Assembly (NCBI GenBank): GCA_963732935.1
Contig: CAVTBK010000001.1
Coordinates: forward strand, 497,624 to 561,623
DNA: 64,000 nt
Reading direction: 5' to 3'
DNA from: an uncultured Acidobacteriota bacterium
GTDB taxonomy: Bacteria > Acidobacteriota > Vicinamibacteria > Fen-336
Below are positions 1,917 to 57,715 of this stretch, one piece after another. Within the stretch, counting starts at the first letter, position 1, and the number at the start of each line of letters is the position of its first letter. The notes under the pieces were generated by a model that saw nothing but the letters and a program-made list of their open reading frames with translations, was not told the DNA's origin and ran no database searches. Position numbers and translations under genes: made by a program.

Positions 1917-2852
1917 ATGATGGCAAGGAAGCTTCTCCTGACGACTCTCGGTCTGGCGGTCGCGGGCGCGGCCGTCCCCGCCGGCTGGGCGCAGGCGCGC
2001 CAGCCTCCCACCTTCGGCACCGGCATCGAGATCATCAACCTGAGCCTCTCCGTCACCGACGCGCAGAACAACTTCGTGACCGACCTCACCCAGAAGGACT
2101 TCGCGGTCTACGAGGACGGCATCCGCCAGGATCTGAGCCTCTTCACGCACGAGAACCTGCCCATCTCGATGGTGCTGATGATCGACTGCTCGGCGTCCAT
2201 GGAGGAGAAGCTCCCCACCGCCCAGGCGGCGGCGGCGCGCTTCGTGAAGACCCTGCGCCCGCAGGACGTCGCGGAGGTCGTGCAGTTCAACGACCGCTCC
2301 ACGATCCTGCAGCCCTTCACGAGCGACCAGGGCGCGCTCGACGCGGCCATCCGCAGGACCGAGGCTTCCGGCCCGACCGCGCTCCACAACGCCCTCTACA
2401 TCGCCCTCCAGGACCTGATGCGGGACAAGAAGGCAGCCGAGCTGCGCCGGCGCGCGATCGTGCTGCTCTCGGACGGCGAGGACACCGCCTCGCTGGTGAG
2501 CGACGACCAGGTGCTGGAGCTGGCGCGCAAGAGCGAGATCAACATCTACGCGGTCGGCCTGCGCAGCAACCCGCGCAGCGACCGCGAGGGTCAGGAGTTC
2601 AGCCCAGCCGAGTATCTGCTCACCTCCCTCGCCCGTGACACCGGCGGCCGGGCCTACTTCCCGAACTCCCTCTCCGAGCTGGACAGCGTCTACGACCGGA
2701 TCGCCGAGGAGCTGCGCACGCTCTACAGCATCGGCTACGTCTCCTCGAACCCGCGCCGCGACGGCAAGTGGCGCCGGATCGTGGTCCGGGTGCCCGGCCG
2801 CGAGGGGATGAGCGTCCGCCACAAGATCGGCTACTACGCACCGGCCTCGTAG
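1917..2852 (+). CDS. VWA domain protein, TIGR03436-like paralog, secreted
   Basis: Signal peptide MMARKLLLTTLGLAVAGAA. MIDCSASM metal-ion-site motif. Similar overall to the upstream gene. Confidence 0.75.
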   Translation: MMARKLLLTTLGLAVAGAAVPAGWAQARQPPTFGTGIEIINLSLSVTDAQNNFVTDLTQKDFAVYEDGIRQDLSLFTHENLPISMVLMIDCSASMEEKLPTAQAAAARFVKTLRPQDVAEVVQFNDRSTILQPFTSDQGALDAAIRRTEASGPTALHNALYIALQDLMRDKKAAELRRRAIVLLSDGEDTASLVSDDQVLELARKSEINIYAVGLRSNPRSDREGQEFSPAEYLLTSLARDTGGRAYFPNSLSELDSVYDRIAEELRTLYSIGYVSSNPRRDGKWRRIVVRVPGREGMSVRHKIGYYAPAS

Positions 2853-2938
2853 CAGGGGCCCGCTGGCGGGCGACGGGGGCGGACGGTAGGCCAGGGAGGG
2901 AGCCGCGTCCGGGCGGGACCGGACCAGCCGCGGCTACG

Positions 2939-2972
2939 AAAAAGGGGTGACGGGCCGAAGCCCGCCACCCCT
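2939..2972 (-). terminator. Rho-independent terminator hairpin between convergent genes
   Basis: aaaaa then GGGGTGaCGGGCcgaaGCCCGcCACCCC, a nested GC hairpin. Read on the minus strand the stem is followed by UUUUU, just downstream of the TonB receptor stop (3016). Confidence 0.55.
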
Positions 2973-3015
2973 CGATCAGATCAGGCGACCCGAGCGACGG
3001 GCCGCGCGATCGTGG

Positions 3016-5925: not shown

Positions 5926-6236
5926 CCGGAAAACTCCTTTCGATCGTTTCAGACGATCCAGAGCTGTTGGATTGTGGCCTGGTAGGCACACTCCCAACGG
6001 GTAACTAAGTTGGTTGTCTGCAACAAACGAACCGGGAGACGGCTCCGCCCCGCGCGGAAGCCAGGTCTCCAATTTGTTGAGCTTCAAGGAGTTGCATGTG
6101 CGCTGGTTTTGTCTCTCTTGGGGCCAATACGGGCCACCGGATCGCGCCTGGAACCGCGATGGCCATTCACGCTTTGTGACATCTGAGTTTACCTGCCGGA
6201 TTCAATCCAAGCGAGGGGAATATTCGGCCGGCTGGA

Positions 6237-8363: not shown

Positions 8364-8469
8364 GATGCTCCGAGGATGTCGTGCCGAAGGGCCGTCGGTC
8401 AAGGCGGTCCCGGACGCCGGCTCCCCGGGCGGCGCAGCGCCGGCCCGCGGGGGCGCGGCGACGGACCCG

Positions 8470-8952
8470 CTACTCCACCCAGACGTGGACGGTGGCGTCG
8501 TCGTCGTCGATGTCGACGAGGCTCTCGCCGGAGTCCAGCGCCCGCAGGACGTCGCCCAGCGTGCGTCCGCCGGGATGGTGCCCGTCGTGGCAGTCCTCGA
8601 TCTTCAGGTCCTCGCCAAGGGCACGCACGATGTCGAGCGGCAGGTTCACCGAGACCCGCCCGTGCTTCTCCCCCTTCTCGGCGATGCGCACGCGGAACCA
8701 GCGCGGCTCGTTCTTGCGCGCGCGGACCCGGTCCCGCGAGGCCCGCTCGGGCGAGGCCTTCTCCGCGCGCCGCTCGGGGGCCGCCTTCTCCGCCGGCCGG
8801 GGCGCGGCTTCGTCCGCCGCCGGACGCGCCTCCGCCGTCACCGTCGTGCCCACCGCCTTCTTGACCGCGGCGAGGTCGTCGTCGATGCGGTCGGCCGCCA
8901 GCGGCGACGCGAGCGCGCCCAGAACCACGGCCGTCAGGAACGCCTTCCTCAT
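8470..8952 (-). CDS. Secreted hypothetical protein with conserved C-terminal about 75-aa domain shared with the upstream gene
   Basis: Signal peptide MRKAFLTAVVLGALASPLAA. C-terminus WFRVRIAEKGE..VSVNLPLDIV..ATVHVWVE aligns with the C-terminus of 8961..9806. Confidence 0.65.
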   Translation of the reverse strand: MRKAFLTAVVLGALASPLAADRIDDDLAAVKKAVGTTVTAEARPAADEAAPRPAEKAAPERRAEKASPERASRDRVRARKNEPRWFRVRIAEKGEKHGRVSVNLPLDIVRALGEDLKIEDCHDGHHPGGRTLGDVLRALDSGESLVDIDDDDATVHVWVE

Positions 8953-8960
8953 GACCCCTC

Positions 8961-9806
8961 CTACTCGATCCAGACCTGGATCCGCTCCCCCTCGTCACCC
9001 TCGATGGTGAGGATGTCGGTGGGGCCCGTCTTCTTCAGTCGCCGCCAGAAGCTCGCCGCGTCGTATCCCTCGTGGCGCAGCTCGCGCCGCGTGTCCGCGG
9101 GCAGCCCCTCGAACACCATCTCGGCGAGCGCGACGGGGAGATTGATCGCCAGCTGCGGCTTGCTGGCGCCCTTCTCGTAGATCCGCACGCGGATCCAGCT
9201 CATGGTCGCCCTGCCACTGCCGGCGATCTCCGGCGCGACGCCGAGCGCCTCGGGGTCGAGCCGCACCAGGTAGAGCTTCGCGCGGTCGACCAGGTCCGGG
9301 TCCTGCTCCTTGTGCAGGATCTCCTTCAGCACCGGCACCGCGGCCCGGCCCTGCTCCTTTCCCAGCGAGGCGAGCTGCAGGGCCGCGAAGTATCGGACGG
9401 TCCGGCTGGGGTCCGCGAGGGCCTCGCGCGCGAGGTCGAGGTAGCGCTCGCGGTCCCGGGCCGGCCTGGCGCTCTTCGCCAGCCGTACGGCGAGCGCGAC
9501 GCGGCTCGTCCGTGCCTCCTCGGCGAGGGTACGGTCGGCCGGCCGGCTGGCCAGGAACTCCCCGTACTCGGCGAGGGCGCGCTGGCGCTCGCCCAGGCTC
9601 TCGCTGCACCGGGCGATCCAGTAGAGGGCCTGCTGGGCGTCGCCGCCGCCGGAGGCGCGTACCGAGTGGAACAGAGTCCGGGCCTGGGCGTACTGGCGGT
9701 CCAGGAAGAGCGCCTTGGCGTTGCGGAGCGTCTCGTCCTGCGACTGCGCCAGGAGGGTGACGGGCGCCAGCAGCGCCAAGAGCACGAGCGACAGAACTGC
9801 TTTCAT
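8961..9806 (-). CDS. Secreted TPR/HEAT-like protein with the same C-terminal domain
   Basis: Signal peptide MKAVLSLVLLALLAPVTLLA. C-terminus WIRVRIYEKGA..LAINLPVALA..ERIQVWIE. Start ATG overlaps the anti-sigma stop. Confidence 0.65.
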   Translation of the reverse strand: MKAVLSLVLLALLAPVTLLAQSQDETLRNAKALFLDRQYAQARTLFHSVRASGGGDAQQALYWIARCSESLGERQRALAEYGEFLASRPADRTLAEEARTSRVALAVRLAKSARPARDRERYLDLAREALADPSRTVRYFAALQLASLGKEQGRAAVPVLKEILHKEQDPDLVDRAKLYLVRLDPEALGVAPEIAGSGRATMSWIRVRIYEKGASKPQLAINLPVALAEMVFEGLPADTRRELRHEGYDAASFWRRLKKTGPTDILTIEGDEGERIQVWIE

Positions 9807-10615
9807 CCTTCCAGCTCCCGTGTCATCAGGCGGATCCGCATCAGCAGCTGCCGTCGCTCGACGTCGCGGCGCACGCGCTCGACGTCGCGGCGCTTGACGC
9901 AGGCGGGAAGGTCGGCCACGTCGCGGAGCGCCATCTCGACGTCGTCCAGCACCCCGCGCGCGCTCGCCACCGCCTCGCTGCCCGCGCCCACCACCAGCCG
10001 CCTCTTCTCGAGCAGCTCGCGGCTGCGCTCCGGCGCGGCGCCGACGTCCAGCCGGCCTTCCCCGTGGTCGCAGTCGCTGCCGGTGGCCGCCACCGCCACC
10101 AGGACGTCGCCCGCCTGGCTCAGGTAGCGGACGGCCTGCTCGCGGGCCAGGTTCCGCTCGATACGCCGGAGCGCGTCCTCGCTGACGAGCGGCGTCGCCT
10201 CGGAGGGGGGGATCTCGGCACGGGCCACCGGCGCACCGGAGCGGGAGCGCTCCACGAGCTTCGGCACGGCGAGCGCGAGGGCCAGGGCCGCGGCGGCAGC
10301 GGGCAGGGCGACCAGCCAGGCACGGCGGCGCAACGGCCGCGGCCGGACCGCGCGTTCGAGGGCTTGCTCGACGCGCGCGACCAGCACGTCGAGGGGCAGC
10401 TCGGGCTCCTCGGCGCGCACCGGATCCTGCTCGATCGCCGTGACGACCACGCGCAGCTCTTCGTGTTCCTCTCGGCAGCCGCGGCAGCGGTCGAGGTGAT
10501 CGAGGGTCTCCCCGCGCGCGGGGTCCTCGAGGGCGCCGGAGGCGAGCAGCGCCAGGCGGGCGCGGGCGCGCCCGTGCTCCCGCACGCCGGCCAGCCACTC
10601 GAGGGGCGATCTCAT
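9803..10615 (-). CDS. Anti-sigma factor, zf-HC2 type, single TM
   Basis: HLDRCRGCREEHEEL zinc-binding motif. TM AWLVALPAAAAALALALAV. Start overlaps the ECF sigma stop (ATGA). Confidence 0.7.
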   Translation of the reverse strand: MRSPLEWLAGVREHGRARARLALLASGALEDPARGETLDHLDRCRGCREEHEELRVVVTAIEQDPVRAEEPELPLDVLVARVEQALERAVRPRPLRRRAWLVALPAAAAALALALAVPKLVERSRSGAPVARAEIPPSEATPLVSEDALRRIERNLAREQAVRYLSQAGDVLVAVAATGSDCDHGEGRLDVGAAPERSRELLEKRRLVVGAGSEAVASARGVLDDVEMALRDVADLPACVKRRDVERVRRDVERRQLLMRIRLMTRELEG

Positions 10616-11187
10616 GGCCTTGCCTCCCCCGCGAAGCTCCCCCGCAGACGCTGGAGCGCCCTGTGCAGGCTGCTCTTGACGGTCCCAAGGCTCATGTCGA
10701 GCGCGGCGGCGATCTCGTCGAGGCTCAGCTCCTGATAGTGCCGGAGCACGACCACGGCCCGCTGACGCTCCGGCAGCCGGGCGAGCGCCGCGCGCACCCG
10801 CTCTCCCACCTCGCGTGCGTGCAGCCGTCGGTCGGGCTCCGGGCCCGTGGCGGCGAGCGAAGGGGCATGATCGCCCTCGCCGAGCGGCGAGAAGGTCTGG
10901 GCCCGGCGCCGGTTGCGCCGCCAGCGGTCGATCGCGAGGTTGACCGTGATCCGGGACAACCAGGGCCCGACCGCCGCCCCGTCCCAGCGGGGCGCCGCCT
11001 GGAAGGCCCTCACGAAGGCCTCCTGCACGACGTCGAGGGCATCCTCCCTCTGACGCAGGTAGGCGAGGGCGATCCGATAGAGGCGGCGGTAGTGGATCCC
11101 CATGAGGGGAGCGAGCGCCTCTCGGTCTCCCGCCGCCAGACGGGCCATGAACGCCCGGTCATCGGCATCCTCCCGCACCGCCTCCAT
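10612..11187 (-). CDS. ECF (sigma-70 family group IV) RNA polymerase sigma factor
   Basis: Region 2 (YRRLYRIALAYL, DVVQEAFV) and region 4 (LSLDEIAAALDMSLGTVKSSLHRA). GGAGGGGG RBS. Confidence 0.85.
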   Translation of the reverse strand: MEAVREDADDRAFMARLAAGDREALAPLMGIHYRRLYRIALAYLRQREDALDVVQEAFVRAFQAAPRWDGAAVGPWLSRITVNLAIDRWRRNRRRAQTFSPLGEGDHAPSLAATGPEPDRRLHAREVGERVRAALARLPERQRAVVVLRHYQELSLDEIAAALDMSLGTVKSSLHRALQRLRGSFAGEARP

Positions 11188-16300: not shown

Positions 16301-17830
<1,530 letters not shown>

Positions 17831-45825: not shown

Positions 45826-45899
45826 GGGCCTGTAGTTCAGATGGTTAGAACGGCCGGCTCATAACCGGCTAGTCGAAGGTTCGAGTCCTTCCAGGCCCA
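45826..45899 (+). tRNA. tRNA-Met (anticodon CAT), elongator-type (G1-C72 paired; could alternatively be tRNA-Ile2 if lysidinylated)
   Basis: GGGCCTG acceptor; D-arm GTTC/GAAC; anticodon stem GCCGG/CCGGC with loop CTCATAA; T-arm GAAGG TTCGAGT CCTTC; discriminator A; CCA not encoded. Confidence 0.8.
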
Positions 45900-45959: not shown

Positions 45960-48152
45960 TCAGCGCCCGGCGGGTGGCGGGGAGGCGCTCTCCCCGCTCG
46001 GAAGACCCGCGGCGATCGCCTTGCCGAGGAGAGCCCGGAGGCGCTCGAGCCGCTGCGGGGGCAGGGCCCGGGCGCCGCGAGCGAGGAGATCCACGACGGC
46101 GCGCTCGTCGGCGGCGAAGACGGCGCCGCTCGTGCGCGCGCGCTCGTAGCCGCGGACGTCGTCGCGCTCGATCGGGTTGAGCCCCCGGACGAGCTCCTCC
46201 CGCAGCGCATCCAGCTCGAGAGCCTCTTCGCGAGTGAGCGCCCTCCGGCCGCGGTCGGCGGCGTCTCCCGCCGCCTGGAAGACGTGGATCAGGTCGGGGG
46301 TCTCGTCGGAGCTGCGCGAGAGGACGAGCTGGATCGTCGCGGACGAGAGCTGCGGCAGCTGCTCGGCGCCTTCCTCCAGCAACCGCTGTCGCGCCTGGCC
46401 GATCCGCTCCGAGCGCACCTGCCGGTCGATGCGAGTGAGGGCCGCCTGCCCGACTTCGCCCGCTTTCGGGAACCAGCTGCGCCAGGTCATGGCGGCGAGA
46501 GCGCCGCCGCCCACGAGGAGCGCAAGCAGGACGACGCGCTTCGTCCAGAGCCAGGCCACGGAGACGAACGCCCGGAACCCTGGCCCCGCCTCGCCGTCGT
46601 CGCCGTCGTAGACCTCGCCCCACGTCTCCGGCTCAGGGACCTCGGCCAGACGGAGCGTGGGCAGCTCGCCGAGGGCGGGCGGCGGCTTCAGGGCCGGGGG
46701 CGCCGGCAGGAGCGGCAGGAGCGGACGGGGCTGCGGGGCGGGCGGGCGCGGCTCGACGGCGGGCGTCACGGGAAGGAGCGGCTTTGCTTCGGGCACTCGG
46801 GCCGGCTTGCGCGGAGCCGGAGCGATGCTGGCCAGCAGCTCACCGAGCGAGCGGGGTTCGTCGACGGGCGGAGGCCCCTCGCTCGCCGCCGCGGCCGCGA
46901 TGCGCTGCGCTTCCTCTCGCCGCTTCGCTGCCTCGCGCCGAAGGGCGGCACGCCGCAGCCGTTGCTGCCGTTCGAAGCGGACCAGCGCATTCAGGAGGCG
47001 GCTCAGGAAGCCCCCGAAGGTCGCGAGGGCCTGGAAGAAGGCGACGTCCGCGGGGTCCCTGAGGGTCGAGAGCTCCTCCGCGCCGTCCGGATAGTCCGCG
47101 TCTTCCGGGGCGCGCGGGGTCGAGAGCGCGCCACCCTGCCAGACCGTCTCACGGTCCCGTTGCGCGTCCGCCTCGAGGGGCTTCAGCGGGATGACCGGGA
47201 AATCCTCTTCGTAGGCCTCCGTCGGTGCTCGATCAGGGGAGGCAAGGGGATCGGCGGCGACCACGAGGTTCGGTGTCTGCGCGGAGGCCGGGTCCTTCGC
47301 GAGGGGGACGACCTTCGTGAGCGGCTCCTCCTCGAGGGGCACCAGCGGGATCGGCGGTGCGCTGTCATCCGGTCGCGTCGTGGGACGCGGAACGGGCTTC
47401 CATGCGGGCGCCGTTGGCTCGGGCGTGCGTGCCTCGCGTTTGCGACGTGGCGCGGGCTTGGGCGGACGCTCGGCGGCGGGTTCGGCGGCCAGCACCTCCA
47501 CCTGCGCGATCACGCGGCGCTCGACGATGACGGAGGGTGGAGCCACGGCCGGGGGCTCGACGGGGGCCGGGGGCTCGACGCCTGTGGAGACTGTGGATGG
47601 CGCCGGGGCAGAAGGCGGCGGTGTTGGTGGCGACGGCGTCCACGGCGGGCTCGAAGGCGGTGGGGGCGGCGGTGGCGGCGTCGGCGGTGGCGGCGTCGGC
47701 GGTGGCGGCGTCCAGTGCGGCGGGCTCGCGAGTGGCGTGCGCACGGGTGGCGGTGGCTCTGGCCGTGGCTCTGGCGGCGTCGGGGGCGGTGGCGTCGGAG
47801 GCTCGGCCATCGGAGGGCGCGCGCTGGGTGTCACGGGTGGCGGTGTCGGTGGCGGCGGGGTTGGCGTTGGCGCTTCGTCGCGCTCGCGCACCGGCTCTCC
47901 CTTGGGCGGCGGCGGGATGAGCGGAAGCTCCGCGCGTGTTCTCGCCGTCCGCCGAGGCGTCGCGCGCCGCTCCGCCGCCCGCTCCGCCACCTGCTCCGCC
48001 GCCAGGAACTCCCTCAGCGGAACCCGGAGCCTCGAGCCCTCGGGCTGCACCATCGCCTTGCGGTCCACGAGCCAGGTGCTCAGGCTGTCGTGGTCCACGA
48101 GAAGGATCGTGCCGTCGCCGAGATGCAGTTGGTAGCGCTGGGACAATGCCAA
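45960..48152 (-). CDS. Proline-rich repeat protein with single TM, unknown function
   Basis: 730 aa. Structured N-terminus, long PPPPTPPP tracts, TM WLWTKRVVLLALLVGGGALAAM, C-terminal helical domain. Confidence 0.6.
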   Translation of the reverse strand: MALSQRYQLHLGDGTILLVDHDSLSTWLVDRKAMVQPEGSRLRVPLREFLAAEQVAERAAERRATPRRTARTRAELPLIPPPPKGEPVRERDEAPTPTPPPPTPPPVTPSARPPMAEPPTPPPPTPPEPRPEPPPPVRTPLASPPHWTPPPPTPPPPTPPPPPPPPSSPPWTPSPPTPPPSAPAPSTVSTGVEPPAPVEPPAVAPPSVIVERRVIAQVEVLAAEPAAERPPKPAPRRKREARTPEPTAPAWKPVPRPTTRPDDSAPPIPLVPLEEEPLTKVVPLAKDPASAQTPNLVVAADPLASPDRAPTEAYEEDFPVIPLKPLEADAQRDRETVWQGGALSTPRAPEDADYPDGAEELSTLRDPADVAFFQALATFGGFLSRLLNALVRFERQQRLRRAALRREAAKRREEAQRIAAAAASEGPPPVDEPRSLGELLASIAPAPRKPARVPEAKPLLPVTPAVEPRPPAPQPRPLLPLLPAPPALKPPPALGELPTLRLAEVPEPETWGEVYDGDDGEAGPGFRAFVSVAWLWTKRVVLLALLVGGGALAAMTWRSWFPKAGEVGQAALTRIDRQVRSERIGQARQRLLEEGAEQLPQLSSATIQLVLSRSSDETPDLIHVFQAAGDAADRGRRALTREEALELDALREELVRGLNPIERDDVRGYERARTSGAVFAADERAVVDLLARGARALPPQRLERLRALLGKAIAAGLPSGESASPPPAGR
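47665..47709. repeat. 15-bp tandem repeat x3 inside the Pro-rich gene
   Basis: ggcggcggtggcggc / gtcggcggtggcggc / gtcggcggtggcggc; encodes PPTPP repeats on the minus strand. Confidence 0.7.
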
Positions 48153-48390
48153 CCTCCTACGGATCCCTCGTTGACATCGTCCGCGGTGTGCCGAACACGG
48201 ACACTACCGCCGAGGGGCACGAACGTCAATGCCTTCGCTCGCCTCGCCTGGCTCCCCGAGACGGGAGGCCGGCAGCAGGTTCGAGGCCCGAGCCACGGCC
48301 GCGTGGAACGCCGCCGGCGCCCGCCTCCGGGCGGCCGGGGCGGCGGGTGCTAGAATGCGGGTCGATGAGACCTTCGGCAGTGCCGTCCGC

Positions 48391-49119
48391 ATGAACGCCG
48401 ACCTCGAGAAGCTCGTCCGCCTCCACCGTGTCGAGAGCGAGCTCAACCACTTCGAGAGCGAGCTCGGCCAGATCCCCGTCCAGCGCCAGGAGCTCGAGGC
48501 CCGCATCGCGCGCGACCGCTCGCGGCTCGACGACGCGAAGGCGGCGCTCGACACCTCGATCAAGGCCCGCAAACAGCACGAGTCGTCCGTGCAGGACCTC
48601 GAGGGCAAGCGCTCGAAGTACAAAGGCCAGCTGATGGAGGTCAAGACCAACAAGGAATACACGGCGATGCTCCACGAGATCGAGGGCGTCGAGCGGGAGA
48701 TCCGCGCCCGCGAGGACCAGGTGCTCGAGGAGATGGAGAAGGCCGAGGCGATGGCCCAGGACGTGAAGCGCGAGGAGGCGGCCTACAAGCTGGTCGAGCA
48801 GACGGGGAAGAGCGAGGCGGCCGGGCTCTCCGCGAGGGAGAAGCAGCTCTCGGAACGAGTCGCGGTTCTGCGCCAGGAGCGCCAGCAGGTCGCTGCCTCG
48901 GTGCCGGAGGAGGCGCTCGCCCTCTACGAGCGGGTCGCCAAGCGCCGGCACACGGCCGTCGCGGAGGCGCGCGACGGCGTCTGCCAGACCTGCCACGTGA
49001 AGCTGCGCCCGCAGGTCTGGGTGGAGGTCCGGAAGAACGACACCCTCTATCAGTGCGAGTCGTGCAACCGCGTGCTCTTCTACGAGACGCCCGCGCCCAC
49101 GGTCGTCGCCGAGCCGTGA
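48391..49119 (+). CDS. COG1579-type coiled-coil protein with C-terminal C4 zinc ribbon
   Basis: Coiled-coil body ending CQTCHVKL...YQCESCNRVLF. Start alternatives 48355 or 48391. Confidence 0.7.
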   Translation: MNADLEKLVRLHRVESELNHFESELGQIPVQRQELEARIARDRSRLDDAKAALDTSIKARKQHESSVQDLEGKRSKYKGQLMEVKTNKEYTAMLHEIEGVEREIRAREDQVLEEMEKAEAMAQDVKREEAAYKLVEQTGKSEAAGLSAREKQLSERVAVLRQERQQVAASVPEEALALYERVAKRRHTAVAEARDGVCQTCHVKLRPQVWVEVRKNDTLYQCESCNRVLFYETPAPTVVAEP

Positions 49120-49568
49120 GCGACGCGGCCGCGCTGCGCCTCCACGTGGACGGCGCCAGCCGGGGCAACCCGGGCGAGGCGGGCTTCGGGATCCAGGTGA
49201 CGACCGTCGACGGGCAGCCGGTCGCGGCCCTCTACGGCTACCTGGGACACGCCACCAACAACGTCGCCGAGTACCAGGCCCTGCTCCACGCGCTGCGCTT
49301 CGCGCTCGACCGCGGCGCGCGGGAGGTCGAGGTCTTCTCGGACTCGGAGCTGCTGGTCCGCCAGCTCGGGGGCCGCTACCGCGTCAAGAACCCCGGCCTG
49401 CAGCCGCTCTTCCGCGAGGCGAACGGCCTGCTGGCGCGCTTCGCCCGCTCGCGGGTCGCGCACGTGCCCCGCGAACGCAATCGCGAGGCGGACGCGCTGG
49501 CCAACCGGGCCGTGGACGAGCGCGGCTGCAGCCCCGGCCTCAATCCGCCGCGAACCCCACGAAGCTGA
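49116..49568 (+). CDS. rnhA: RNase H (type 1-like)
   Basis: GTGA overlap with upstream stop. HVDGASRGNPG, NNVAEYQALL, SDSELLV, READALAN catalytic motifs. Confidence 0.75.
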   Translation: MSDAAALRLHVDGASRGNPGEAGFGIQVTTVDGQPVAALYGYLGHATNNVAEYQALLHALRFALDRGAREVEVFSDSELLVRQLGGRYRVKNPGLQPLFREANGLLARFARSRVAHVPRERNREADALANRAVDERGCSPGLNPPRTPRS

Positions 49569-50241
49569 TCATCCTTCCCGCGCCCCGACCCTCGCGGCGG
49601 AACGAGTGGTAGCGGTCGCGTTGGCAGAAGGTGCAGGCGTCGACCTGGGACAGGTGGTGAGCGGCGAGCCCCGCCGCCAGCAGCTGCCGCGTGTTGGCGA
49701 GGCGCAGGTCGAGGTGGGGCCGGCCCCTCGGGCCCGGACGGAAGACGTGCTCCGCTTCGGAGCCGAAGGCCGCCCGCAGCTCCTCGCCCACCTCGTAGCA
49801 ACAGGGCCCGATCGCCGGCCCGAGCGCGGCCAGAAGCTCTCCCGCGAGCGAACCGCCCGCCACCAGTGCCTCGATCGTACGCAGGGCGACTCCGGCGGCC
49901 GTCCCGCGCCAGCCCGCGTGCGCGGCGGCGACCGCCCGCCGGCGGGGATCGACGACGAGGATGGGCAGGCAGTCGGCGGTCTCGATCCCCAGGAGCAGCC
50001 CGGGGGCTGCGGCGAGCGAGGCGTCTGCCTCGGGCGTCCCCTCCCAGGGCGCCGTCACCACGCGCGCCCCGTGGACCTGCTTCAGCAGCAGCAGGCGGCC
50101 CGTCGGGGCCAGCGCGAGGGCGGCGCGCGCGCGAGTCTCCTGGCGGCCTTCCGGCGCGGCCGTCGGGGCGCGTTCCCCGAAGCCGTGGACGAGCCCCGGG
50201 ACGGCGGTGAAGGCGGGCAGGGTCGCGAATCCGGGCGGCAC
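49540..50241 (-). CDS. pgeF: PgeF/YfiH family purine-nucleoside phosphorylase / peptidoglycan editing factor (LACC1-like)
   Basis: LKQVHG, ADCLP, HAGWRG, GPCCYEVG, CTFC...YHSFRR. GTG start with GAGG RBS. Confidence 0.75.
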   Translation of the reverse strand: MPPGFATLPAFTAVPGLVHGFGERAPTAAPEGRQETRARAALALAPTGRLLLLKQVHGARVVTAPWEGTPEADASLAAAPGLLLGIETADCLPILVVDPRRRAVAAAHAGWRGTAAGVALRTIEALVAGGSLAGELLAALGPAIGPCCYEVGEELRAAFGSEAEHVFRPGPRGRPHLDLRLANTRQLLAAGLAAHHLSQVDACTFCQRDRYHSFRREGRGAGRMISFVGFAAD

Positions 50242-50276
50242 CCTCGCATGGTAGCAAGCGCGCCCGTGAGACACGG

Positions 50277-50282
50277 TAGACT
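50277..50282 (+). promoter_or_regulatory. -10 box TAGACT 10 nt upstream of ATG 50293 (leaderless-type)
   Basis: Same geometry as 29734 and 13199. Confidence 0.3.
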
Positions 50283-50292
50283 GTTCGGCAGG

Positions 50293-50676
50293 ATGTCCAC
50301 CGGTCCCCCGCACGGCGACGGCGTGCGAGCGAGCGCGCTGGAGCTGGTCGAGGTCGACGAGGTCGAGCGCCTGCTCGCCTCTGGAGACACCGCCGCCTTC
50401 AGCGCCTCCGAGCTGGACTTCGCCCGCGCCCGATCCGACCCGGCCCGCCGCCTGGCAGCCCGGCTGGCGGCCAAGCGGGCGGCGATCCGCCTGCTCGGGG
50501 CAGGACTGGTCCCGTCGGACTTCGAGGTCGCGCGCGAGGACGGCCCCCCGTCGCTCCGACTCTCGGCGCGGGCGCGGGAGCGTCTGGTGGTGCTGGGCGC
50601 GGCGCGCGTGCTGGTGAGCCTGACTCATGAGCGACGCCACGCGGCGGCTCTGGTGCTGCTCCTGGAGGACGCCTGA
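50293..50676 (+). CDS. acpS: Holo-[acyl-carrier-protein] synthase
   Basis: About 127 aa, C-terminal SLTHE..AAALVLLE typical of AcpS. Confidence 0.7.
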   Translation: MSTGPPHGDGVRASALELVEVDEVERLLASGDTAAFSASELDFARARSDPARRLAARLAAKRAAIRLLGAGLVPSDFEVAREDGPPSLRLSARARERLVVLGAARVLVSLTHERRHAAALVLLLEDA

Positions 50677-50702: not shown

Positions 50703-51671
50703 GTGGCGGTGGTCGCGATCGCGGCCGCCGGCGGCCTCCTCTACCTCGCCTACGCGCCGGCGGGCGACGCCAGGCCGCATCCGTTCAACCACGATCGCAA
50801 CGCCGTCTGGCTCGAGCACCGCTGGCTCGAGCGCCCGCACAGCGAGGCGCAGATGGAGGCGCTCTTCCTGCGCCTGCGGCGGCGTGGCGTCATCTACCTC
50901 TATCCGCACCTGATCCCCTTCGACCGGGAGGGCAACCTGCCGCCCCACGACCGCGACGAGATGCGGGCCTTCCTGACCGTGGCCCGCCGGGTCGCCCCCG
51001 AGCTGCGGCTGCTGCCCTGGGTCGGGGGCCTGCGCGCCGGCTACAGGCGGCAGCGGGTGGGTGTCCTGGAGCTGAGCGACCTCAACCAGCGGCAACGCAT
51101 CGTCGCCGAGGTGCGTGGCCTGATGGACGAGGGGTTCGACGGGATCCACCTCGACGTGGAACCGGTGAACGACGGCAACGTGGAGTTCCTGGCGATGCTC
51201 CGCGCTCTGCGCCCGGCGCTGGGCGAGGGGCGTCTCCTCTCGGTCGCCGCCACCCGCCCCGCCCCGCTCGGCCTGCCGCCCGCGCCCAATTTCGCGTGGA
51301 GCCCCGAGTACTACGCGCGCGTCGCGCACCTGGTCGACCAGCTCGCGATCATGGCGTACGACACGGCGCTGCCGACGCCGGCCCTCTATCGGCGCTACGT
51401 CGAGTGGTCGGCCTCCTCCGTGGCGGGCGCGCTCTCCGCCTCCGGATCCGAGGCGCGCGTGCTGATGGGTGTCCCGACCTACGACAACTTCGGCTTCATG
51501 CACCGGGCCGGTGTCGAGACCCCGGAGAACGCGCTCCTCGGTATCGTGGCGGGCCTGCGGGGCCTGGGCGCGGGTGGCACCTTCGAGGGGGTCGCGATCT
51601 ACGCCGACTGGACGACCGACGATGCCGACTGGGCCGTCTACGAGCGGCTCTGGCGCAACCACGGGCGCTAG
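50703..51671 (+). CDS. Membrane-anchored TIM-barrel-like protein with GH18-type DGIHLDVE motif (putative glycoside hydrolase, DUF4015-like)
   Basis: N-terminal TM; FDGIHLDVEP resembles the GH18 DGxDxDWE catalytic motif. Confidence 0.45.
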   Translation: MAVVAIAAAGGLLYLAYAPAGDARPHPFNHDRNAVWLEHRWLERPHSEAQMEALFLRLRRRGVIYLYPHLIPFDREGNLPPHDRDEMRAFLTVARRVAPELRLLPWVGGLRAGYRRQRVGVLELSDLNQRQRIVAEVRGLMDEGFDGIHLDVEPVNDGNVEFLAMLRALRPALGEGRLLSVAATRPAPLGLPPAPNFAWSPEYYARVAHLVDQLAIMAYDTALPTPALYRRYVEWSASSVAGALSASGSEARVLMGVPTYDNFGFMHRAGVETPENALLGIVAGLRGLGAGGTFEGVAIYADWTTDDADWAVYERLWRNHGR

Positions 51672-51787
51672 GCACCGGAACTCCGGCTGAGCCTTCCGGC
51701 GCTCCCCCTTGAGCCGTCCGCGACTCCTTTTTCGCGTCTCTAGGTAGGGGGCGGCCTAAAGACCGCTCGACGCGGAAGGGGGAAGGC

Positions 51788-53074
51788 ATGGAGTGGGTTC
51801 GTAGCAGGACGGCAGGCATCCTGGCCTGCGCCGGATTCGCCGCCGGGCTGCTGAGCGGACGGACGGCCGCGGCAGTCGACGTCGACGGGGCCGGCAACGT
51901 GGTGATCGTGCCGCTGGTGTTTTCGGGGTTCGAGCGCTCCTCGAGCGTCACCGTGACCAACGCCGGGGGCGGCCCGATCGACGTCACCGCGGACTATGTC
52001 GGGGCGGAGGGCACGCCGAAGGATGCGGCGGTGGTCGGGCCGATCTCCTGCGGGAGCCAGAGGCTCGACGGCGGGCAGAGTCGCAGCTTCCCGCTCGCGG
52101 ACTGGTGTCCGCCGCTGGCCCCGGTGGACGTGGAGAACTTCGGCTACCTGAAGCTGACGTCGGATGGCGACGGCCGCATCAGCTTCTCCGCCACCAGCTC
52201 GATCAGGACCGCGAAAGGAACGGTCTCCGTCATTCCGGGGCAGCCCATAGGTGCCTTCGACCCGGGGAGGCGACCCCTCTCGATTCCGGGCGCGCCGTCG
52301 ACCCTGCGGGTGATGGGGTTCGAGGACATGCACCACGTGGCCTGCTACTTCGGGTCGCTCGACGAGCCCACGGAGGTGGAGCTGTCGCTGCTCGACACCA
52401 CCGGTCAGGTGATGGTCTCCGGCTTCAAGCTCAAGCTGGGCGCGGAACGCATGAAGCGCGTGCTTCCCTTCACCGCGTTCGGGCCGGTGCTGGACGCCCG
52501 CCTCGTCGTGGAGCCTTTGTCCGCACCCTCCCTGGTCGTCGCGAGCTGCGCCGAGGAGAGTCCGCTCGACGGCACCGTCGCCTACCTGCCGGCCCGGACC
52601 CCGGACCCTCTCGACGATTCGCGCCTCCACGTCGTGCTGGCAGACGCCGGCGTCCAGATGGGTCCCTACAGGGTCGGTGACCTCTGGACCCACAGGCTGG
52701 TCGGAGATCCGGCCAGCCGGAAGGTCACGCTCACCACCTACCTGCGCCCGGACGACCGGGTGTACTGCACTCTGAGAGTGCCACCCTACCCGGGCAGCTT
52801 CGATCCCAGCCCGTGGCTCGAGCTGCAGATGAGGGCTCCCGACGGGACCGTCGTGGCCGGGGGCAGCGGCGCCAAGGATACCGGCGTCTTCTCGACGGGT
52901 CATCGCGGACGCTACCGGGACGAACGCTGGCACCTGGACGTTTCCTTCGACGAGGCGGCAGGCCCCTGGCCGGGCAGCCAGCCGAAGGGAATCTGGGCGG
53001 TCGTCTGCGAGAGCGCCGCCGGCATGTCGTCGCTGCTCACGGTCGACGATCCGACGGCGACCGACGATTTCTGA
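51788..53074 (+). CDS. Secreted hypothetical protein, paralog A
   Basis: GGGGGAAGG RBS. Signal peptide. Shares VIxPLV...YVG...ISC...FGxLxL...VVCESxxGxSxL blocks with the downstream gene. Confidence 0.6.
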   Translation: MEWVRSRTAGILACAGFAAGLLSGRTAAAVDVDGAGNVVIVPLVFSGFERSSSVTVTNAGGGPIDVTADYVGAEGTPKDAAVVGPISCGSQRLDGGQSRSFPLADWCPPLAPVDVENFGYLKLTSDGDGRISFSATSSIRTAKGTVSVIPGQPIGAFDPGRRPLSIPGAPSTLRVMGFEDMHHVACYFGSLDEPTEVELSLLDTTGQVMVSGFKLKLGAERMKRVLPFTAFGPVLDARLVVEPLSAPSLVVASCAEESPLDGTVAYLPARTPDPLDDSRLHVVLADAGVQMGPYRVGDLWTHRLVGDPASRKVTLTTYLRPDDRVYCTLRVPPYPGSFDPSPWLELQMRAPDGTVVAGGSGAKDTGVFSTGHRGRYRDERWHLDVSFDEAAGPWPGSQPKGIWAVVCESAAGMSSLLTVDDPTATDDF

Positions 53075-53090
53075 GACCCGCGCAGGAGGA

Positions 53091-54329
53091 ATGGAGACCG
53101 CCATGTCACACGCACGAATCGTCACGGCAGCGCTCGTCGCCGGCCTCGCGACCGCCGCCGCTCCCCCGTCCCGCGCCGCGAGCGCCGGGGACGCGGGTCC
53201 CTCCCTGGTCATCCCTCTCGTCCAGTACGACGGAGCGGCGGACAGCGACGTGTACGTCGAGAACCACGAGCAGCACGACGTCGAGGTCCAGCTGCGCTGG
53301 GTGGGCGAGCCGGCCAGCAGCACGCCCGGACTCCGCATCTGCCGCAACGAGATTCTCCTCGCCCGCCACCTCACCGGGCTCCGGCCCGTCAACTCCTGCT
53401 CGCTCTCCCACACCAACGAATTCGGGATGCTGGTGATCCTCGCTACCAAACCCTCGGGTCTGGCGCGACTGTCGGCCCGCGGGAACATCGCGGTCAAGGG
53501 CGGCGGAAAGGTGATGGTCGACGGCCTGCCCCTCGCGGACCTCGAGTCCACCGACGTCGTCCACGTGGTGGGCGGTCTGGCGTCCGATCCCTCGGGGAGC
53601 CTGTTCCCGCCGTCCACCACGGACTGCCTGTTCGGCACCTTCTTCGACGGGAGCGGTGTGGGTGGCGCGGTGGTGCGCTTCGGGCTCCGTGACTCGGACG
53701 GGCGGCCGCTGGGCAAGGACGTCCTCGCCGCCGCGAAACCGTTCTCGCTGACGCGCTTCTCCGACGTCTTCAAGCTGGTCGGCGCCCCTCCCGCTGCCTA
53801 CGACGACGTCCGCGCCGTGTTCGCGCCGGGAGGCGGCGGCGACGCGGTGGTGGGCTATTGCCTGACGACGGCGCCGACTCCCCAGGGGGAGACACGGGCC
53901 TACGCGCTCGCGCGGGTGGACGAGCCCGAACAGGGAACGCGGCGGCGCATCATCAAGGTCGTTTCGACTCCCGAGGTGCTAGGGGGCCGGAGCTTCCGGC
54001 TCGATCCCTCCCTGAGCAAGGTTTCGCACGGGCTCTTCGTGCAGCACCCGGACCGCTTCCGATGCGCCGTGGCGTCGGCGAGCGGCGGTGGCGAGCTGGT
54101 CCTCACGATGGTCTCCCCCGACCATGTGTTCTTCGGGGGGCAGACCGCGTCGACGGGCTGGTTGGATACCGGCCCGCGCAGCCAGACGAACCGGGGCCAG
54201 GCGGGCCTGTGGGGCCTGGAGGTGTCCTGGGCCCCCGGCGCGACACGGAGCCGCCCCGTCGAGTACGTGATCTCGTGCGAGAGCGGCAACGGCGTGAGCC
54301 TGGCCGACCAGCTCGTGCGCGTGCCGTAG
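53091..54329 (+). CDS. Secreted hypothetical protein, paralog B
   Basis: AGGAGGA RBS. Signal peptide. Conserved blocks as above (YVISCESGNGVSL versus AVVCESAAGMSSL). Confidence 0.6.
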   Translation: METAMSHARIVTAALVAGLATAAAPPSRAASAGDAGPSLVIPLVQYDGAADSDVYVENHEQHDVEVQLRWVGEPASSTPGLRICRNEILLARHLTGLRPVNSCSLSHTNEFGMLVILATKPSGLARLSARGNIAVKGGGKVMVDGLPLADLESTDVVHVVGGLASDPSGSLFPPSTTDCLFGTFFDGSGVGGAVVRFGLRDSDGRPLGKDVLAAAKPFSLTRFSDVFKLVGAPPAAYDDVRAVFAPGGGGDAVVGYCLTTAPTPQGETRAYALARVDEPEQGTRRRIIKVVSTPEVLGGRSFRLDPSLSKVSHGLFVQHPDRFRCAVASASGGGELVLTMVSPDHVFFGGQTASTGWLDTGPRSQTNRGQAGLWGLEVSWAPGATRSRPVEYVISCESGNGVSLADQLVRVP

Positions 54330-54380: not shown

Positions 54381-56198
54381 CTAGGCCCCCGCCCCGCCCC
54401 GCCCGGCCATCCTCTCGTAGAAGGGCAGCTGTCTCAGCCCCCGCCACTTCTCGGGCAGGGCGTAGGCCGGGTTGGGCTGCTCCGCGCAAACGCCGCAGCG
54501 GATGCAGCCTTGCAGCTCCGGGCAGTGCGGGGAGAGGCGCCCCTGGCGGCTCCTCTCCAGCTCCTTCCAGAAGTAGGCCTTCTCCACCCCGTTGTCGACC
54601 AGGTCCCAGGGCAGCGTCTCGGCGAAGGCACGCTGCCGGAAGAGGTAGAAGGCGGGATCGAGACCCTTCTCGCGGAGCGCACGCTTGAGGGGCAGCTCCT
54701 CGAGGACGGCCAGCTCCAGCGCGTCGGCGACGCGCCGGTCGCCGAGCGCCAGCACCGACTGGGCCGCGCCGGTGCGCGCGCTCTTGCAGATCGCCTCCAC
54801 GTTGGGCATGCGGGCGAAGGCCTTGCGCAGGTACTGAAGCTTGTGGTCCGTCTGCTTCGGGTCCTCCATCGGCAGCCACTGGAAGGGCGTGCCCGGCTTC
54901 GGCACGAAGGGGTTCACCGAGGGGTGGATGCGCCCGACCCGGCCGCGGCCGCGGGCGACGGCGAGCATCCGCTCGCGGATGGCGCTGGTCAGCTCCACGA
55001 TCGCCTCGACGTCGGCGTGCTCTTCGTAGGGGAGCCCGACCATGTAGTAGAGCTTGAGGTTCTGGATGCCCTTCTCGAAGATCCAGCTGGCGCGGTCGAG
55101 GATCTCGGCATTGGTGAACTGCTTGTTCAGCACGCGGCGCATGCGATCGGAGCCGCACTCCGGTGCCAGGGTCAGGCCCTCGACGCCCGTGTCGACCAGC
55201 TTGAAGACGAACTCCGGCGTCAGGTCGTCGAGCCGCAGCGAGGCGACCGAGACCTGGTAGCCCATCCCCGCCAGGTCGTCGACGATGCCCTCGATCTCCG
55301 GGTGGTCGCAGACCGCCGTCGAGACGAGGCCGATCTTGCCCGTCGCCCGCCGCACCTCGCGCGCGCGGGCGACCAGCTCCGCCCGCGAGAAGCCGCGTAC
55401 CGGGAGATAGTTGTACCCGGCCCAGCAGAAGCGGCACATGCAGGGGCAGCCGCGCGAGATCTCGACCAGGTACTTCATCGACATCTCGGTGTGGGGGGTG
55501 AGCACGATCGACTGCGGGAAGCCCATGGCCCCCGGCCAGCCGCGCTGGCGGCGGATTCTCCCGGGCCCGTCGTAGCGGGCCACCGTCCCGTCGCCGTGGT
55601 AGTGCACGTGGTACTGGGAGGGGAGATAGAAGCCGTCCCGCGGCTTGAGCTCGAGCATCCCCCGACGCGGATCGCTCGCGCCCATCAGGGCGTCCATCAG
55701 GCGGGGCACCAGCGCCTCGGCCTCGCCCACCGCCACCAGGTCCGCGAAAGGCGCGAGCGGCTCGGGGTTCAGGAAAGTGGCGGCCCCGCCCAGGATCACG
55801 AGCGGGTCGCGCGGGCCGCGGTCGCGGGCCCGCAACGGGATCCCCGCCAGCCGCAGCACGCGCAGCACGTGCAGGTAGTCGTTCTCGAAGGAGACCGAGA
55901 AGGCGATCGCGTCGAAGTCCCGAAGCGGCGTCCCGGTCTCGAAGCTCGGCAGCGGCCGGCCGGTCCGCAGCAGCTCGGCCGCGTCCTCGTCGTCGGGCAG
56001 GAAGGCGCGTTCGCAGACGACGTCGGGGGTCGCGTTCAGCAGCCGATAGACCGCCTGGAAGCCGAGGTTCGACATCCCGACGTAGTAGAGGTTCGGCCAG
56101 ACGAGCGCCACCCGGAAAGAGCCGCGCCGCGGCACCTCTTCCAGCCACACCTCGTCCCGGCGCAGCCGTTCGTGACGTTCCTGCAGCTTGAGGGACAA
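54381..56198 (-). CDS. B12-binding-domain radical SAM protein (TIGR03960-like)
   Basis: N-terminal B12-binding-like fold (RVALVWPNLYYVGMSNLGFQ). Cys motif CPCMCRFC (CxxxCxxC). Confidence 0.8.
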   Translation of the reverse strand: MSLKLQERHERLRRDEVWLEEVPRRGSFRVALVWPNLYYVGMSNLGFQAVYRLLNATPDVVCERAFLPDDEDAAELLRTGRPLPSFETGTPLRDFDAIAFSVSFENDYLHVLRVLRLAGIPLRARDRGPRDPLVILGGAATFLNPEPLAPFADLVAVGEAEALVPRLMDALMGASDPRRGMLELKPRDGFYLPSQYHVHYHGDGTVARYDGPGRIRRQRGWPGAMGFPQSIVLTPHTEMSMKYLVEISRGCPCMCRFCWAGYNYLPVRGFSRAELVARAREVRRATGKIGLVSTAVCDHPEIEGIVDDLAGMGYQVSVASLRLDDLTPEFVFKLVDTGVEGLTLAPECGSDRMRRVLNKQFTNAEILDRASWIFEKGIQNLKLYYMVGLPYEEHADVEAIVELTSAIRERMLAVARGRGRVGRIHPSVNPFVPKPGTPFQWLPMEDPKQTDHKLQYLRKAFARMPNVEAICKSARTGAAQSVLALGDRRVADALELAVLEELPLKRALREKGLDPAFYLFRQRAFAETLPWDLVDNGVEKAYFWKELERSRQGRLSPHCPELQGCIRCGVCAEQPNPAYALPEKWRGLRQLPFYERMAGRGGAGA

Positions 56199-56524: not shown

Positions 56525-57715
56525 CTACTCGCCCCCCAGGTCGCCCTTGAGGTCGCCGCCCTTGCGACGCAGGAAGGCGGGGACGTCGAGGTCGAAGCGG
56601 GCCCCGCCGCTGGCGGCCTTCGGGTTCGGCGTCTTGCGGTAGAAGTCGCCGCCCGCCGCGGCGGCCTTCGCCTGGGGCGTCGACTGGTAGTTGCTGAAGT
56701 CGACGGGCGTCGCGGTGGCCTTCTTGAAGCCGGTCGCGATCACGGTCACCTTCACGGCGTTGCCCATCTGCTCGTCGGTGACGATGCCGTAGATGACGTT
56801 GGCGTCGGGATCGGCCACCTTGGTGATGAGAGCCGTCGCCTCGGAGGCCTCGATCAGGGACAGGTCGGGGCCGCCGGTGATGTTGACGATGACGCCCTTG
56901 GCGCCCTCGATCGAGGAGTCTTCGAGCAGAGGATTCGAGATCGCGCGCTGGGCGGCCTCGGCAGCCCGGTTCTCGCCCTGGCCGATCCCGGTGCCCATCA
57001 CCGCCTGGCCCATGCCGCGCATCACCGCCCGCACGTCGGCGAAGTCGAGGTTGATCTGGCCGGGCACGGTGATGATGTCGGAGATGCCCTGCACGGCCTG
57101 GCGCAGGACGTCGTCGGCCACCCGGAAGGCCTCGGTGACCGGCGTGTTGCGCGCCACGGAGTCGAGCAGCCGGTCGTTCGGGATCGCGATCACGGAGTCG
57201 ACGCAGTCGCGCAGCGATGCGAGCCCGTCGTGGGCCTGCGCCATCCGTCGCTTGCCCTCGAGCGAGAAGGGCAGCGTCACGACGGCGACGCTCAGCACGT
57301 TGCCGCTCTCGCCTCCCAGCTGGCTGGCGATCGAGGCGACCACCGGTGCGGCACCGGTGCCGGTGCCACCCCCGAGGCCCGCCGTGATGAAGACCATGTC
57401 GGAGCCCTCGAGGGCGTCGCAGATCTTCTCGGTGTCCTCGACGGCGGCCTGGCGGCCGACGTCGGGGTTGGCGCCCGCGCCCAGGCCCTTGGTGAGCTTG
57501 GCGCCGATCTGGATCTTGACCGGCGCCCGGTTGGCGCGCAGCGCCTGCAGGTCGGTGTTGACGGCGATGAACTCGATCCCCTGCAGTCCCGAGGCGATCA
57601 TGCGGCTGATCGCGTTTCCCCCGCCCCCACCCACGCCCACCACCTTGATGCGGGCGCCGCGGACCTCCTCGTCGGCGAACTGGATTCGGCCTGGACGGTC
57701 GATCTCTTTGGTCAT
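56525..57715 (-). CDS. ftsZ: Cell division protein FtsZ
   Basis: [27 protein letters not shown] tubulin signature. Confidence 0.95.

Follow-up and report, generated by a model that had tools for sequence, protein, structure and literature searches.

Two adjacent genes, here called A and B, lie on the forward (+) strand at positions 51788-54329 of the window, the stretch of 64,000 nucleotides that was analyzed as a whole and that comes from an uncultured bacterium of the Vicinamibacteria (Acidobacteriota). It was found that A and B are full-length paralogues, and the sequence family to which they belong is undescribed in the libraries searched. The pair and the features belonging to it are listed here, with the lengths in nucleotides (nt) or amino acid residues (aa).

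51710 to 51738, + strand: bipartite promoter-like motif TGAGCC-N17-CGCGTC, which starts 78 nt before the ATG codon of A
51774 to 51786, + strand: Shine-Dalgarno-like purine-rich stretch GGAAGGGGGAAGG upstream of A, read from the sequence
51788 to 53074 (stop codon included), + strand: gene A, from the open reading frame (ORF) listing; a predicted exported three-domain protein of 428 aa with the C-terminus ...DDF
51788 to 51874, + strand: predicted signal peptide of A (aa 1-29), predicted to be cut after AAA; its n, h, and c regions were read from the sequence
51893 to 52261, + strand: domain 1 of A (aa ~36-158), a predicted eight-stranded beta-sandwich with Cys88 and Cys107; Asn58 ends strand 2
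52295 to 52603, + strand: domain 2 of A (aa ~170-272), a predicted eight-stranded beta-sandwich with Cys186 and Cys254
52619 to 53041, + strand: domain 3 of A (aa ~278-418), a predicted eight-stranded beta-sandwich with Cys327 and Cys407, Asp323, and the motif C-x-S-(G/A)-(N/A)-G
53042 to 53071, + strand: C-terminal tail of A, ending in Asp-Asp-Phe
53084 to 53089, + strand: Shine-Dalgarno site AGGAGG for B, inside the 28-nt spacer between A and B
53103 to 54329, + strand: gene B, a paralogue of A (408 aa) without the DDF tail and with the C-terminus CESGNGVSLADQLVRVP

The original prediction, made from the sequence of this stretch, described two adjacent forward-strand genes of 428 and 412 aa, each with its own ribosome-binding site. 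Both ORFs are present, and A is indeed 428 aa long, but the 412-aa form of B requires an alternative in-frame ATG at 53091, which is a less likely start than that of the 408-aa form. The AGGAGG sequence at 53084-53089 lies 1 nt from the ATG at 53091 and 13 nt from the ATG at 53103. The B homologues start with MS..R, and B is called as a gene of 408 aa in the database, which makes the start at 53103 the most likely one. A ribosome-binding site could be recognized for each gene as proposed, namely the purine-rich stretch before A and AGGAGG before B, and orthologous loci have GGAGG-type sites at the same position upstream of A. The G+C content of the window is ~72%. A and B have G+C contents of 0.89 and 0.90, respectively, at the third codon position and of 0.53-0.54 at the second, a pattern that is also seen in the nearby ftsZ gene. 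The ratio of nonsynonymous to synonymous substitution rates (dN/dS) was 0.36 and 0.16 in the pairs of B orthologues examined. The third-position values and these ratios show that A and B are real genes under purifying selection.

It had also been proposed that the two genes arose long ago by tandem duplication of a gene for a secreted, Cys-containing protein, because several collinear sequence blocks are common to both. All four quoted block pairs were found, and they are aligned with each other by both BLASTP and hhalign. BLASTP gave an end-to-end alignment of A and B with 25% identity over 412 columns (E=6e-5). When the alignment of the A subfamily (n=15 sequences) was compared with that of the B subfamily (n=10), hhalign reported a probability of 99.9% over 386 columns (E=2.9e-36). 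The Smith-Waterman score of A against B is 13.5 standard deviations above 1000 shuffles, none of which reaches the score (0/1000), and the similarity remains when the signal peptides are removed (z=12.2, Gumbel p ~9e-8). Thus, the similarity is not explained by the amino acid composition of a high-GC genome. The proposal of an old duplication withstood each of the checks suggested with it.

Word-indexed searches found 14 relatives of A and 8 relatives of B, all of which are metagenomic and either unnamed or annotated as "hypothetical protein". The orthologues of A have 35-58% identity. An exhaustive hidden Markov model search with the combined alignment recovered 316 clusters at a threshold of E<=1e-3, of which 121 remain at E<=1e-30, and most of the family members are 400-470 aa long. 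Among the members that were looked up, only P0063 has another annotation ("YD repeat-containing protein"). The members with an organism-named source belong to metagenome-assembled genomes (MAGs) of Gammaproteobacteria, and one related locus belongs to a MAG of Vicinamibacteria. In a scan of GTDB genomes, the A pattern had no match (0), and the B pattern led to one Vicinamibacteria MAG. Scans of A, B, and distant members against Pfam, NCBIfam, PHROGs, and PADLOC returned no family, and the family profile had no match among the PDB sequences (best E=0.1). Thus, the view of A and B as members of an unrecognized family stands: profile searches assign neither of them to a characterized one. No relatives were found in the viral contigs scanned, which argues against a phage origin.

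Is the A-B pair a conserved unit? I fetched 29 loci and classified their ORFs with the A and B profiles. At every B with readable upstream sequence, A lies upstream on the same strand, giving ~17 pairs, two of which were recognized solely by the ...DDF stop of A. The spacer between A and B is 13-47 nt in the related loci. Where the flanks are readable, no locus was seen in which one partner has been lost. The tree of nine complete pairs separates the A from the B sequences into reciprocally monophyletic clades whose internal topologies match. Thus, the A/B duplication predates the divergence of the sampled lineages, and the two copies have been kept at similar rates. In the same nine pairs, the pairwise identities among the A sequences correlate with those among the B sequences (r=0.96), and the within-locus identity of A and B is always 23-28%. 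The arrangement is A-B-A-B in loci L003 and L004 and A-B-A in L020 and L021. The two pairs of L003 group together in the tree for A as well as for B, which shows that the unit duplicates as a whole. On the other hand, the homologues in Gammaproteobacteria show no A/B differentiation and occur singly or in loose groups of three. The question of whether homologues always occur as tandem pairs thus has a divided answer: the A and B subtypes are paired at every evaluable locus, while the distant gammaproteobacterial members are single or loosely clustered.

It is conceivable that A and B are subfunctionalized paralogues with separate actions, each perhaps on a ligand of its own, and that they are adjacent only through their common promoter. 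The single-copy and loosely clustered members in Gammaproteobacteria are in line with this idea, and each protein has distinct motifs (TTDC-FG-FFDGSG and SGNGxSLAD in B, DTGVFSTG and DDF in A). However, order and spacing are strictly kept in the ~17 pairs, and the parallel rates, the co-duplication, and the lack of any locus missing one partner point to joint action. I consider independent action of the two proteins unlikely.

One metagenomic contig, L011, has three members of ~437-441 aa in a row (5893-10811), one of them set off by a 181-aa gene. This trio adjoins a cluster of glycosyltransferase, methyltransferase, and PMT-like genes, and its context may thus be related to glycans.

The DNA upstream of A was aligned from six lineages. 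It was revealed that two blocks are invariant amid diverged DNA: (T/C)GAG and, exactly 23 nt downstream, CGCGT. The consensus of nine sites upstream of A genes is TGAGNN-N17-CGCGT(C/A) with invariant spacing. The motif lies 71-78 nt before every A with readable upstream DNA, including the second A of the tandem arrays, and the genes upstream of it differ. In the window, the strict pattern YGAG-N19-CGCGTM has only one match on the two strands together (51710-51738), and the motif shows no enrichment elsewhere in it. Since ~3.5 matches of this pattern are expected by chance in the window, the position of the motif is informative and the count is not. Two loci (L027 3473-4140 and L028 307-974) have a gene for a predicted secreted hypothetical protein of 170 aa directly upstream of A, and TGAGCC-N17-CGCGTC also precedes the start of this gene. 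Judging from this shared motif, the 170-aa gene may belong to the same regulon as A-B. A tblastn search found no homologue of the 170-aa protein in the window.

Promoters of extracytoplasmic function (ECF) sigma factors are characterized by a bipartite motif with a 16-17 nt spacer and a CGT(C)-type -10 element, and the motif found here, with its 6-17-6 layout, has both. In L002, the A-B pair is flanked by genes for an anti-sigma factor and an ECF sigma factor, and in L027 it is flanked by the genes for an ECF sigma factor and the 170-aa secreted protein. Taken together, this layout, the -10 element of the CGTC type, and the sigma/anti-sigma genes beside the pair in the two lineages suggest that an ECF-type alternative sigma factor transcribes the A-B unit from TGAGNN-N17-CGCGTC.

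A GC-rich hairpin follows the motif in the 5′ untranslated region of five of the six lineages. It is missing from the window copy (z=+0.18) and its covariation is weak, and a conserved hairpin is therefore not claimed. The promoter pattern also occurs across the A stop and the B start of L023 (686-714, with no A after it) and once in L007 (8520-8548), probably by chance. As for the sigma genes, positions 2636-3612 (- strand) of L002 contain a sigma gene, of which the region 4 end is visible, and then a zf-HC2 anti-sigma gene. The ECF-type sigma factor of L027 (2181-3308) is 375 aa long and has a long hydrophobic, transmembrane-like C-terminal extension.

The N-terminal sequences of A and B were read directly. 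A begins with the basic MEWVRSR followed by the hydrophobic TAGILACAGFAAGLL and by SGRTAAA with an AxA-type site, after which VDVDGAG starts. B begins with the basic MSHAR followed by the hydrophobic IVTAALVAGLATAAA and by PPSRAAS with an AxA-type site, after which AGDAG starts. The hydrophobic stretch is ~15 residues long in both, and a lipobox is absent. The n, h, and c regions and the AxA-type sites agree with the earlier assignment of signal peptides to both proteins, and the predicted signal peptide of B comprises aa 1-27. I infer from these features that A and B are exported via the Sec pathway and cut by signal peptidase I. An N-terminal hydrophobic segment is present in 119 of 125 family members. 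The mature N-terminus (S/A)G-V-D-G-A-G follows the A signal peptide directly in 15 homologues, and x-D-G-x-G is the conserved form directly after the signal-peptide site. Mature A has a mass of 42.2 kDa and an isoelectric point (pI) of 4.8, and mature B has a mass of 39.9 kDa and a pI of 5.9. Each has six Cys residues, as do 91 of the 125 members (exactly six). The Cys residue inside the A signal peptide is unconserved. A subfamily of 465-496 aa (P0083, P0098, P0110, P0115, P0117, P0119, and P0132) has 11-13 Cys residues. Its Cys-rich C-terminal extension replaces the ...F tail, and its N-terminus is QSPYGLAARQTIPFV.

AlphaFold2 models of A (predicted local distance difference test score, pLDDT, 71.7; predicted template modeling score, pTM, 0.56) and B (pLDDT 80.1; pTM 0.61) both consist of three all-beta domains with eight strands each and low-confidence linkers between them. 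The domains of B are at about aa 30-141, 154-270, and 284-408. An internal triplication was rejected, since hhalign found no detectable relation between domains 1 and 2, 1 and 3, or 2 and 3 (probabilities <=3.4%). Residue conservation was counted in an alignment of 118 sequences with A numbering. The invariant residues are the six Cys residues (88, 107, 186, 254, 327, and 407; 117-118/118, with Cys88 and Cys107 in 118/118), Gly119, Gly412 (118/118), and Pro42 (117/118). Asp323 (116/118), Asn58 (105/118), Pro153, Gly177, and Gly359 are nearly invariant. Since the six invariant Cys columns are distributed two per predicted domain, each domain probably has one disulfide (88-107, 186-254, and 327-407 in A), which would be formed outside the cytoplasm. 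The C-terminal end is also conserved. A C-terminal Phe is present in 89 of 125 full-length members, a DDF end in 41 of 125, and a C-x-S-G-N-G-like motif lying ~21 residues from the C-terminus in 115 of 125. Phe428 is invariant within the A subfamily. B lacks the DDF tail and ends with SGNGxSLADxL(F/V).

No catalytic constellation was found among the conserved columns of this alignment. Because the invariant and nearly invariant residues are only Cys, Gly, Pro, one Asn, and one Asp, A and B are probably not enzymes. A new extracytoplasmic enzyme, for example one that is active on glycans together with a protein encoded just upstream, would be an alternative. The neighbor in question is as follows.

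50703 to 51671, + strand: GH18-like protein of 322 aa, unmatched in Pfam and NCBIfam; its N-terminus contains a transmembrane segment

The description of this neighbor as GH18-like is weakly borne out by phmmer, which matched the part around the catalytic motif to chitinase B (E ~1e-3). Besides this neighbor, the nearly invariant Asp323, which is part of an R-H-P-D motif, would fit an enzyme. However, Asp323 is the one conserved acidic residue, there is no conserved set of His, Ser, or Glu, and the all-beta sandwiches have no similarity to a catalytic fold. Moreover, the GH18-like gene is next to A-B in no other lineage. An enzymatic role is thus extremely improbable. The catalytic motif of the GH18-like protein reads FDGIHLDVE, with a His in place of the middle Asp of DxxDxDxE, and its 90%-identity cluster has 16 members.

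A comparison of the flanking genes had been suggested as a check. Neither the GH18-like gene nor the radical SAM gene downstream of B is a neighbor of A-B in other lineages. Like FtsZ, these two are specific to this genome and were rejected as conserved neighbors. Other flanks include Ser/Thr kinases (L003), rpoD (L015 and L017), and a GDSL-like gene (L029).

Some members of the family are parts of large secreted proteins. In P0051, P0057, P0065, and P0069, a module of domains 1 and 2 is repeated twice at the C-terminus, after RHS/YD, fn3, PKD, Calx-beta, InlB-B-repeat, and ASH/Ig-like domains. One of the four has a weak sub-threshold M10-like HExxH match upstream of the repeats. P0063 and P0076 have a complete three-domain module at the C-terminus, after Big_3_5 or CAP and InlB-B-repeat domains. 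In P0091, P0123, and P0161, this complete module is N-terminal. Such placement is typical of binding or targeting modules, and it is mainly on this ground, together with the lack of catalytic residues, that I propose a role in binding or structure.

The occurrence of related modules at the ends of RHS/YD-repeat proteins may instead recall a bicomponent secreted toxin or antagonistic effector. Leukocidin S/F and BinA/BinB consist of two diverged exported beta-rich paralogues that are encoded by tandem genes and are both needed. A and B are likewise tandem exported beta-rich paralogues with ~25% identity, and they behave like accessory genes in their patchy distribution, variable flanks, and local amplification. 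However, the analogy is one of gene organization only, as no fold or sequence relationship was found. Neither Foldseek against the PDB nor sequence profiles detected a leukocidin-, aerolysin-, or Bin-like fold with a meaningful template modeling (TM) score or match, and no pore-forming fold was matched (Cry and CDTb with probability <=0.38 and TM <=0.22). No small immunity-like gene is conserved beside the pair, and no amphipathic or hydrophobic insertion segment is evident. The module in the RHS proteins is at the site of a binding domain and not after a PxxxxDPxGL-type boundary, although no formal boundary test was made. It is very improbable that A and B form a toxin.

Foldseek searches of the PDB with both models found no full-length analogue (query-normalized TM <=0.23), and a search of BFVD with the B model gave nothing meaningful. 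A capsid-like reading was rejected, since the matches to viral capsid and tail proteins have TM <=0.22. The highest full-length ranks were AgI/II C123, the PrgB Ig domains, and Bacteroides SGBP-B, which are also exported chains of about three beta-sandwich domains. However, there is no real superposition (TM 0.13-0.18, rmsd >20 A; the adhesin, SGBP, and capsid matches as a whole have rmsd >18 A), and A and B differ from these multi-Ig adhesins and SGBP-B in having no sequence similarity to them, no cell-wall anchor, and no lipobox.

At the level of a single domain, both models matched Thermotoga TM1070 (1nc7) with a probability of 1.0, the target TM being 0.72 with A and 0.65-0.70 with B. In the A model, one domain also matched ASRT (2ii7-2ii9; probability 0.99-1.0, TM 0.53-0.64), and one matched the C-terminal jelly-roll of Tk-SP subtilisin (probability 1.0). 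The eight-stranded sandwiches of TM1070 and ASRT are the defining members of the ASRAH superfamily, for which sugar binding is predicted; versions outside the cell are found in multiples, with cell-surface sugars as their predicted ligands (De Souza, Iyer & Aravind 2009, PMC2739507). The likeness consists of an eight-stranded beta-sandwich superposing on TM1070/ASRT and, in domain 1 only, of an Asn residue that ends strand 2 (Asn58 of strand 50-58 in A, Asn54 of strand 46-54 in B); in the superfamily, a nearly invariant Asn at this place stabilizes the turn to strand 3. In contrast to ASRAH domains, the A/B sandwich has an internal disulfide (predicted) and is joined to two other non-homologous sandwiches.

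The best explanation that I can offer, and one that I judge about equally prone to be right or wrong, is that A and B constitute a self-contained two-gene unit driven by an alternative sigma factor and encoding exported, disulfide-bonded, non-catalytic three-sandwich proteins, which act together in a binding or structural role in the envelope, a glycan being the likeliest ligand. A and B would be transcribed as one unit from their own promoter-like motif by an ECF-like sigma factor. After Sec export and cleavage by signal peptidase I, each domain would acquire its disulfide outside the cytoplasm. The two proteins would then cooperate, probably in the form of a heteromer, in a binding or structural function at the envelope or cell surface. 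A glycan might be bound through the TM1070/ASRT-like sandwich domain. The free ends, namely the mature x-D-G-x-G and, in A only, the C-terminal ...DDF, may mediate assembly. The ligand, the location (periplasm, surface, or medium), and the formation of a heteromer are predictions from the genes and models.

Several observations weigh against this explanation. The single gammaproteobacterial members suggest that the fold can work without a differentiated partner, and no informative conserved neighbor of the A-B pair was found among the loci compared. The -35 element of ECF promoters usually contains AAC. The -35-like hexamer here is TGAG(A/C/G)(C/G) without AAC, and the ECF assignment is thus inferred rather than established. 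In addition, of about 8 contexts only those of L002 and L027 have ECF sigma/anti-sigma genes beside the pair, and the window has its nearest ECF-like sigma gene ~40 kb from A-B. The confidence of the models is moderate (pLDDT 72 and 80, pTM ~0.6). The Foldseek output does not say which domain matches TM1070, all three having eight strands. The hallmark Trp of ASRAH strand 1 is absent, and the strand instead reads (I/V)-V-V-(V/I)-P-(L/V)-V with the invariant Pro42. Pfam ASRT/DUF1362 had no match at E<=1 with A, B, 100 members, or consensus sequences, and the PDB profile search with the family did not recover 1nc7 or 2ii7. A match of the family consensus to Pfam DUF5719 with 27.5 bits (cut-off 26.2) at profile positions 57-117, corresponding to strands 1-4 of domain 1, was counted in favor of a binding role, but this match comes from an artificial consensus only, its coverage is 60 positions of a 319-position profile, and neither A nor B gives a match. 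Weak matches to DUF5719 were seen in 9 of 100 members (best E 0.0045). The likeness is confined to ~60 residues of one domain, and DUF5719 differs in architecture, cysteine pattern, termini, and taxa. DUF5719 may correspond to the actinobacterial ASRAH lipoprotein family that adjoins WhiB and a glycosyltransferase. A search of the literature on DUF5719 and on Vicinamibacter S-layers found nothing informative.

Could A and B be the two subunits of a surface lattice or fiber, either S-layer-like or matrix, with their conserved termini as assembly contacts? Slr4 (PF19526) is a signal-peptide-bearing S-layer protein of Gram-negative bacteria, the marine Gammaproteobacteria (PMC7821379). A and B, known here from genes and models, resemble it in the signal peptide, the roughly 40-kDa class, the beta-rich structure, and a presumed place at a Gram-negative surface. 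The acidic pI of both mature proteins, the conservation of the extreme termini, the good Shine-Dalgarno sites, the relatively relaxed dN/dS of 0.36, and the tandem duplication of the A-B unit are also compatible with a lattice. Weak matches to Slr4 were found for A (E=0.024) and in 3 of 100 members. However, the score of A is far below the threshold (14.3 bits vs 25) and the alignment is non-collinear (aa 22-80 of A against profile positions 253-310). The family is sporadic and multi-copy rather than present as one gene per genome, and a promoter of the stress-sigma type would hardly be expected for a major surface protein that is made constitutively. A lattice of this kind is therefore distinctly unlikely. 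A bolder version is an extracellular assembly (lattice, fiber, or sheath) of soil Acidobacteriota that is as yet unknown, made of a new three-sandwich protomer whose N-terminus and DDF end lock the subunits, under a dedicated ECF-type sigma switch. This is speculative and quite improbable.

The obligate pairing of A and B behind their own promoter-like motif is a new arrangement, while Sec export, beta-sandwich domains, and tandem paralogues are familiar building blocks. Exported beta-sandwich proteins of unknown function are common; nothing here is surprising in kind and the value of the finding is moderate. Although Vicinamibacteria and related Acidobacteriota are abundant in soil, they are poorly cultured, and next to nothing is known of the proteins that they secrete or carry in the envelope. 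With at least 316 clusters and no database name, the family is a candidate for a new Pfam entry. The domain plan, the cysteine pattern, and the two-gene unit make A-B a compact candidate for a surface or glycan-binding system, and the promoter motif may mark the regulon of an uncharacterized alternative sigma factor.

In the window, the A-B pair and the GH18-like gene have a pgeF-type gene on one side; on the other side are the radical SAM gene and the division cluster, with its ftsZ end toward the pair. The radical SAM gene (54381-56198, - strand) is convergent with B and encodes a B12-binding radical SAM protein (TIGR03960, 378 bits vs a cut-off of 462). It is directly downstream of ftsZ (56525-57715, - strand) and ftsA. 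The stretches at 49540-50640 (- strand) and 48229-49568 (+ strand) encode a PgeF/YfiH-type Cu-oxidase_4 protein, a CT398-like coiled-coil zinc-ribbon protein, and RNase H. ARAGORN predicted a 90-nt "tRNA-???" with a four-base anticodon (cttg) at 17663-17752 (- strand), which is probably a false positive; at the Rfam gathering threshold it was unconfirmed, and only the tRNA-Met at 45826-45899 was confirmed. A 730-aa ORF at 45960-48152 (- strand) has an extremely proline-rich N-terminal half with TPPPPTPPP runs, and around residue 560 there is a hydrophobic segment. The ORF overlaps with long ORFs on the antisense strand, which are typical of high-GC DNA.

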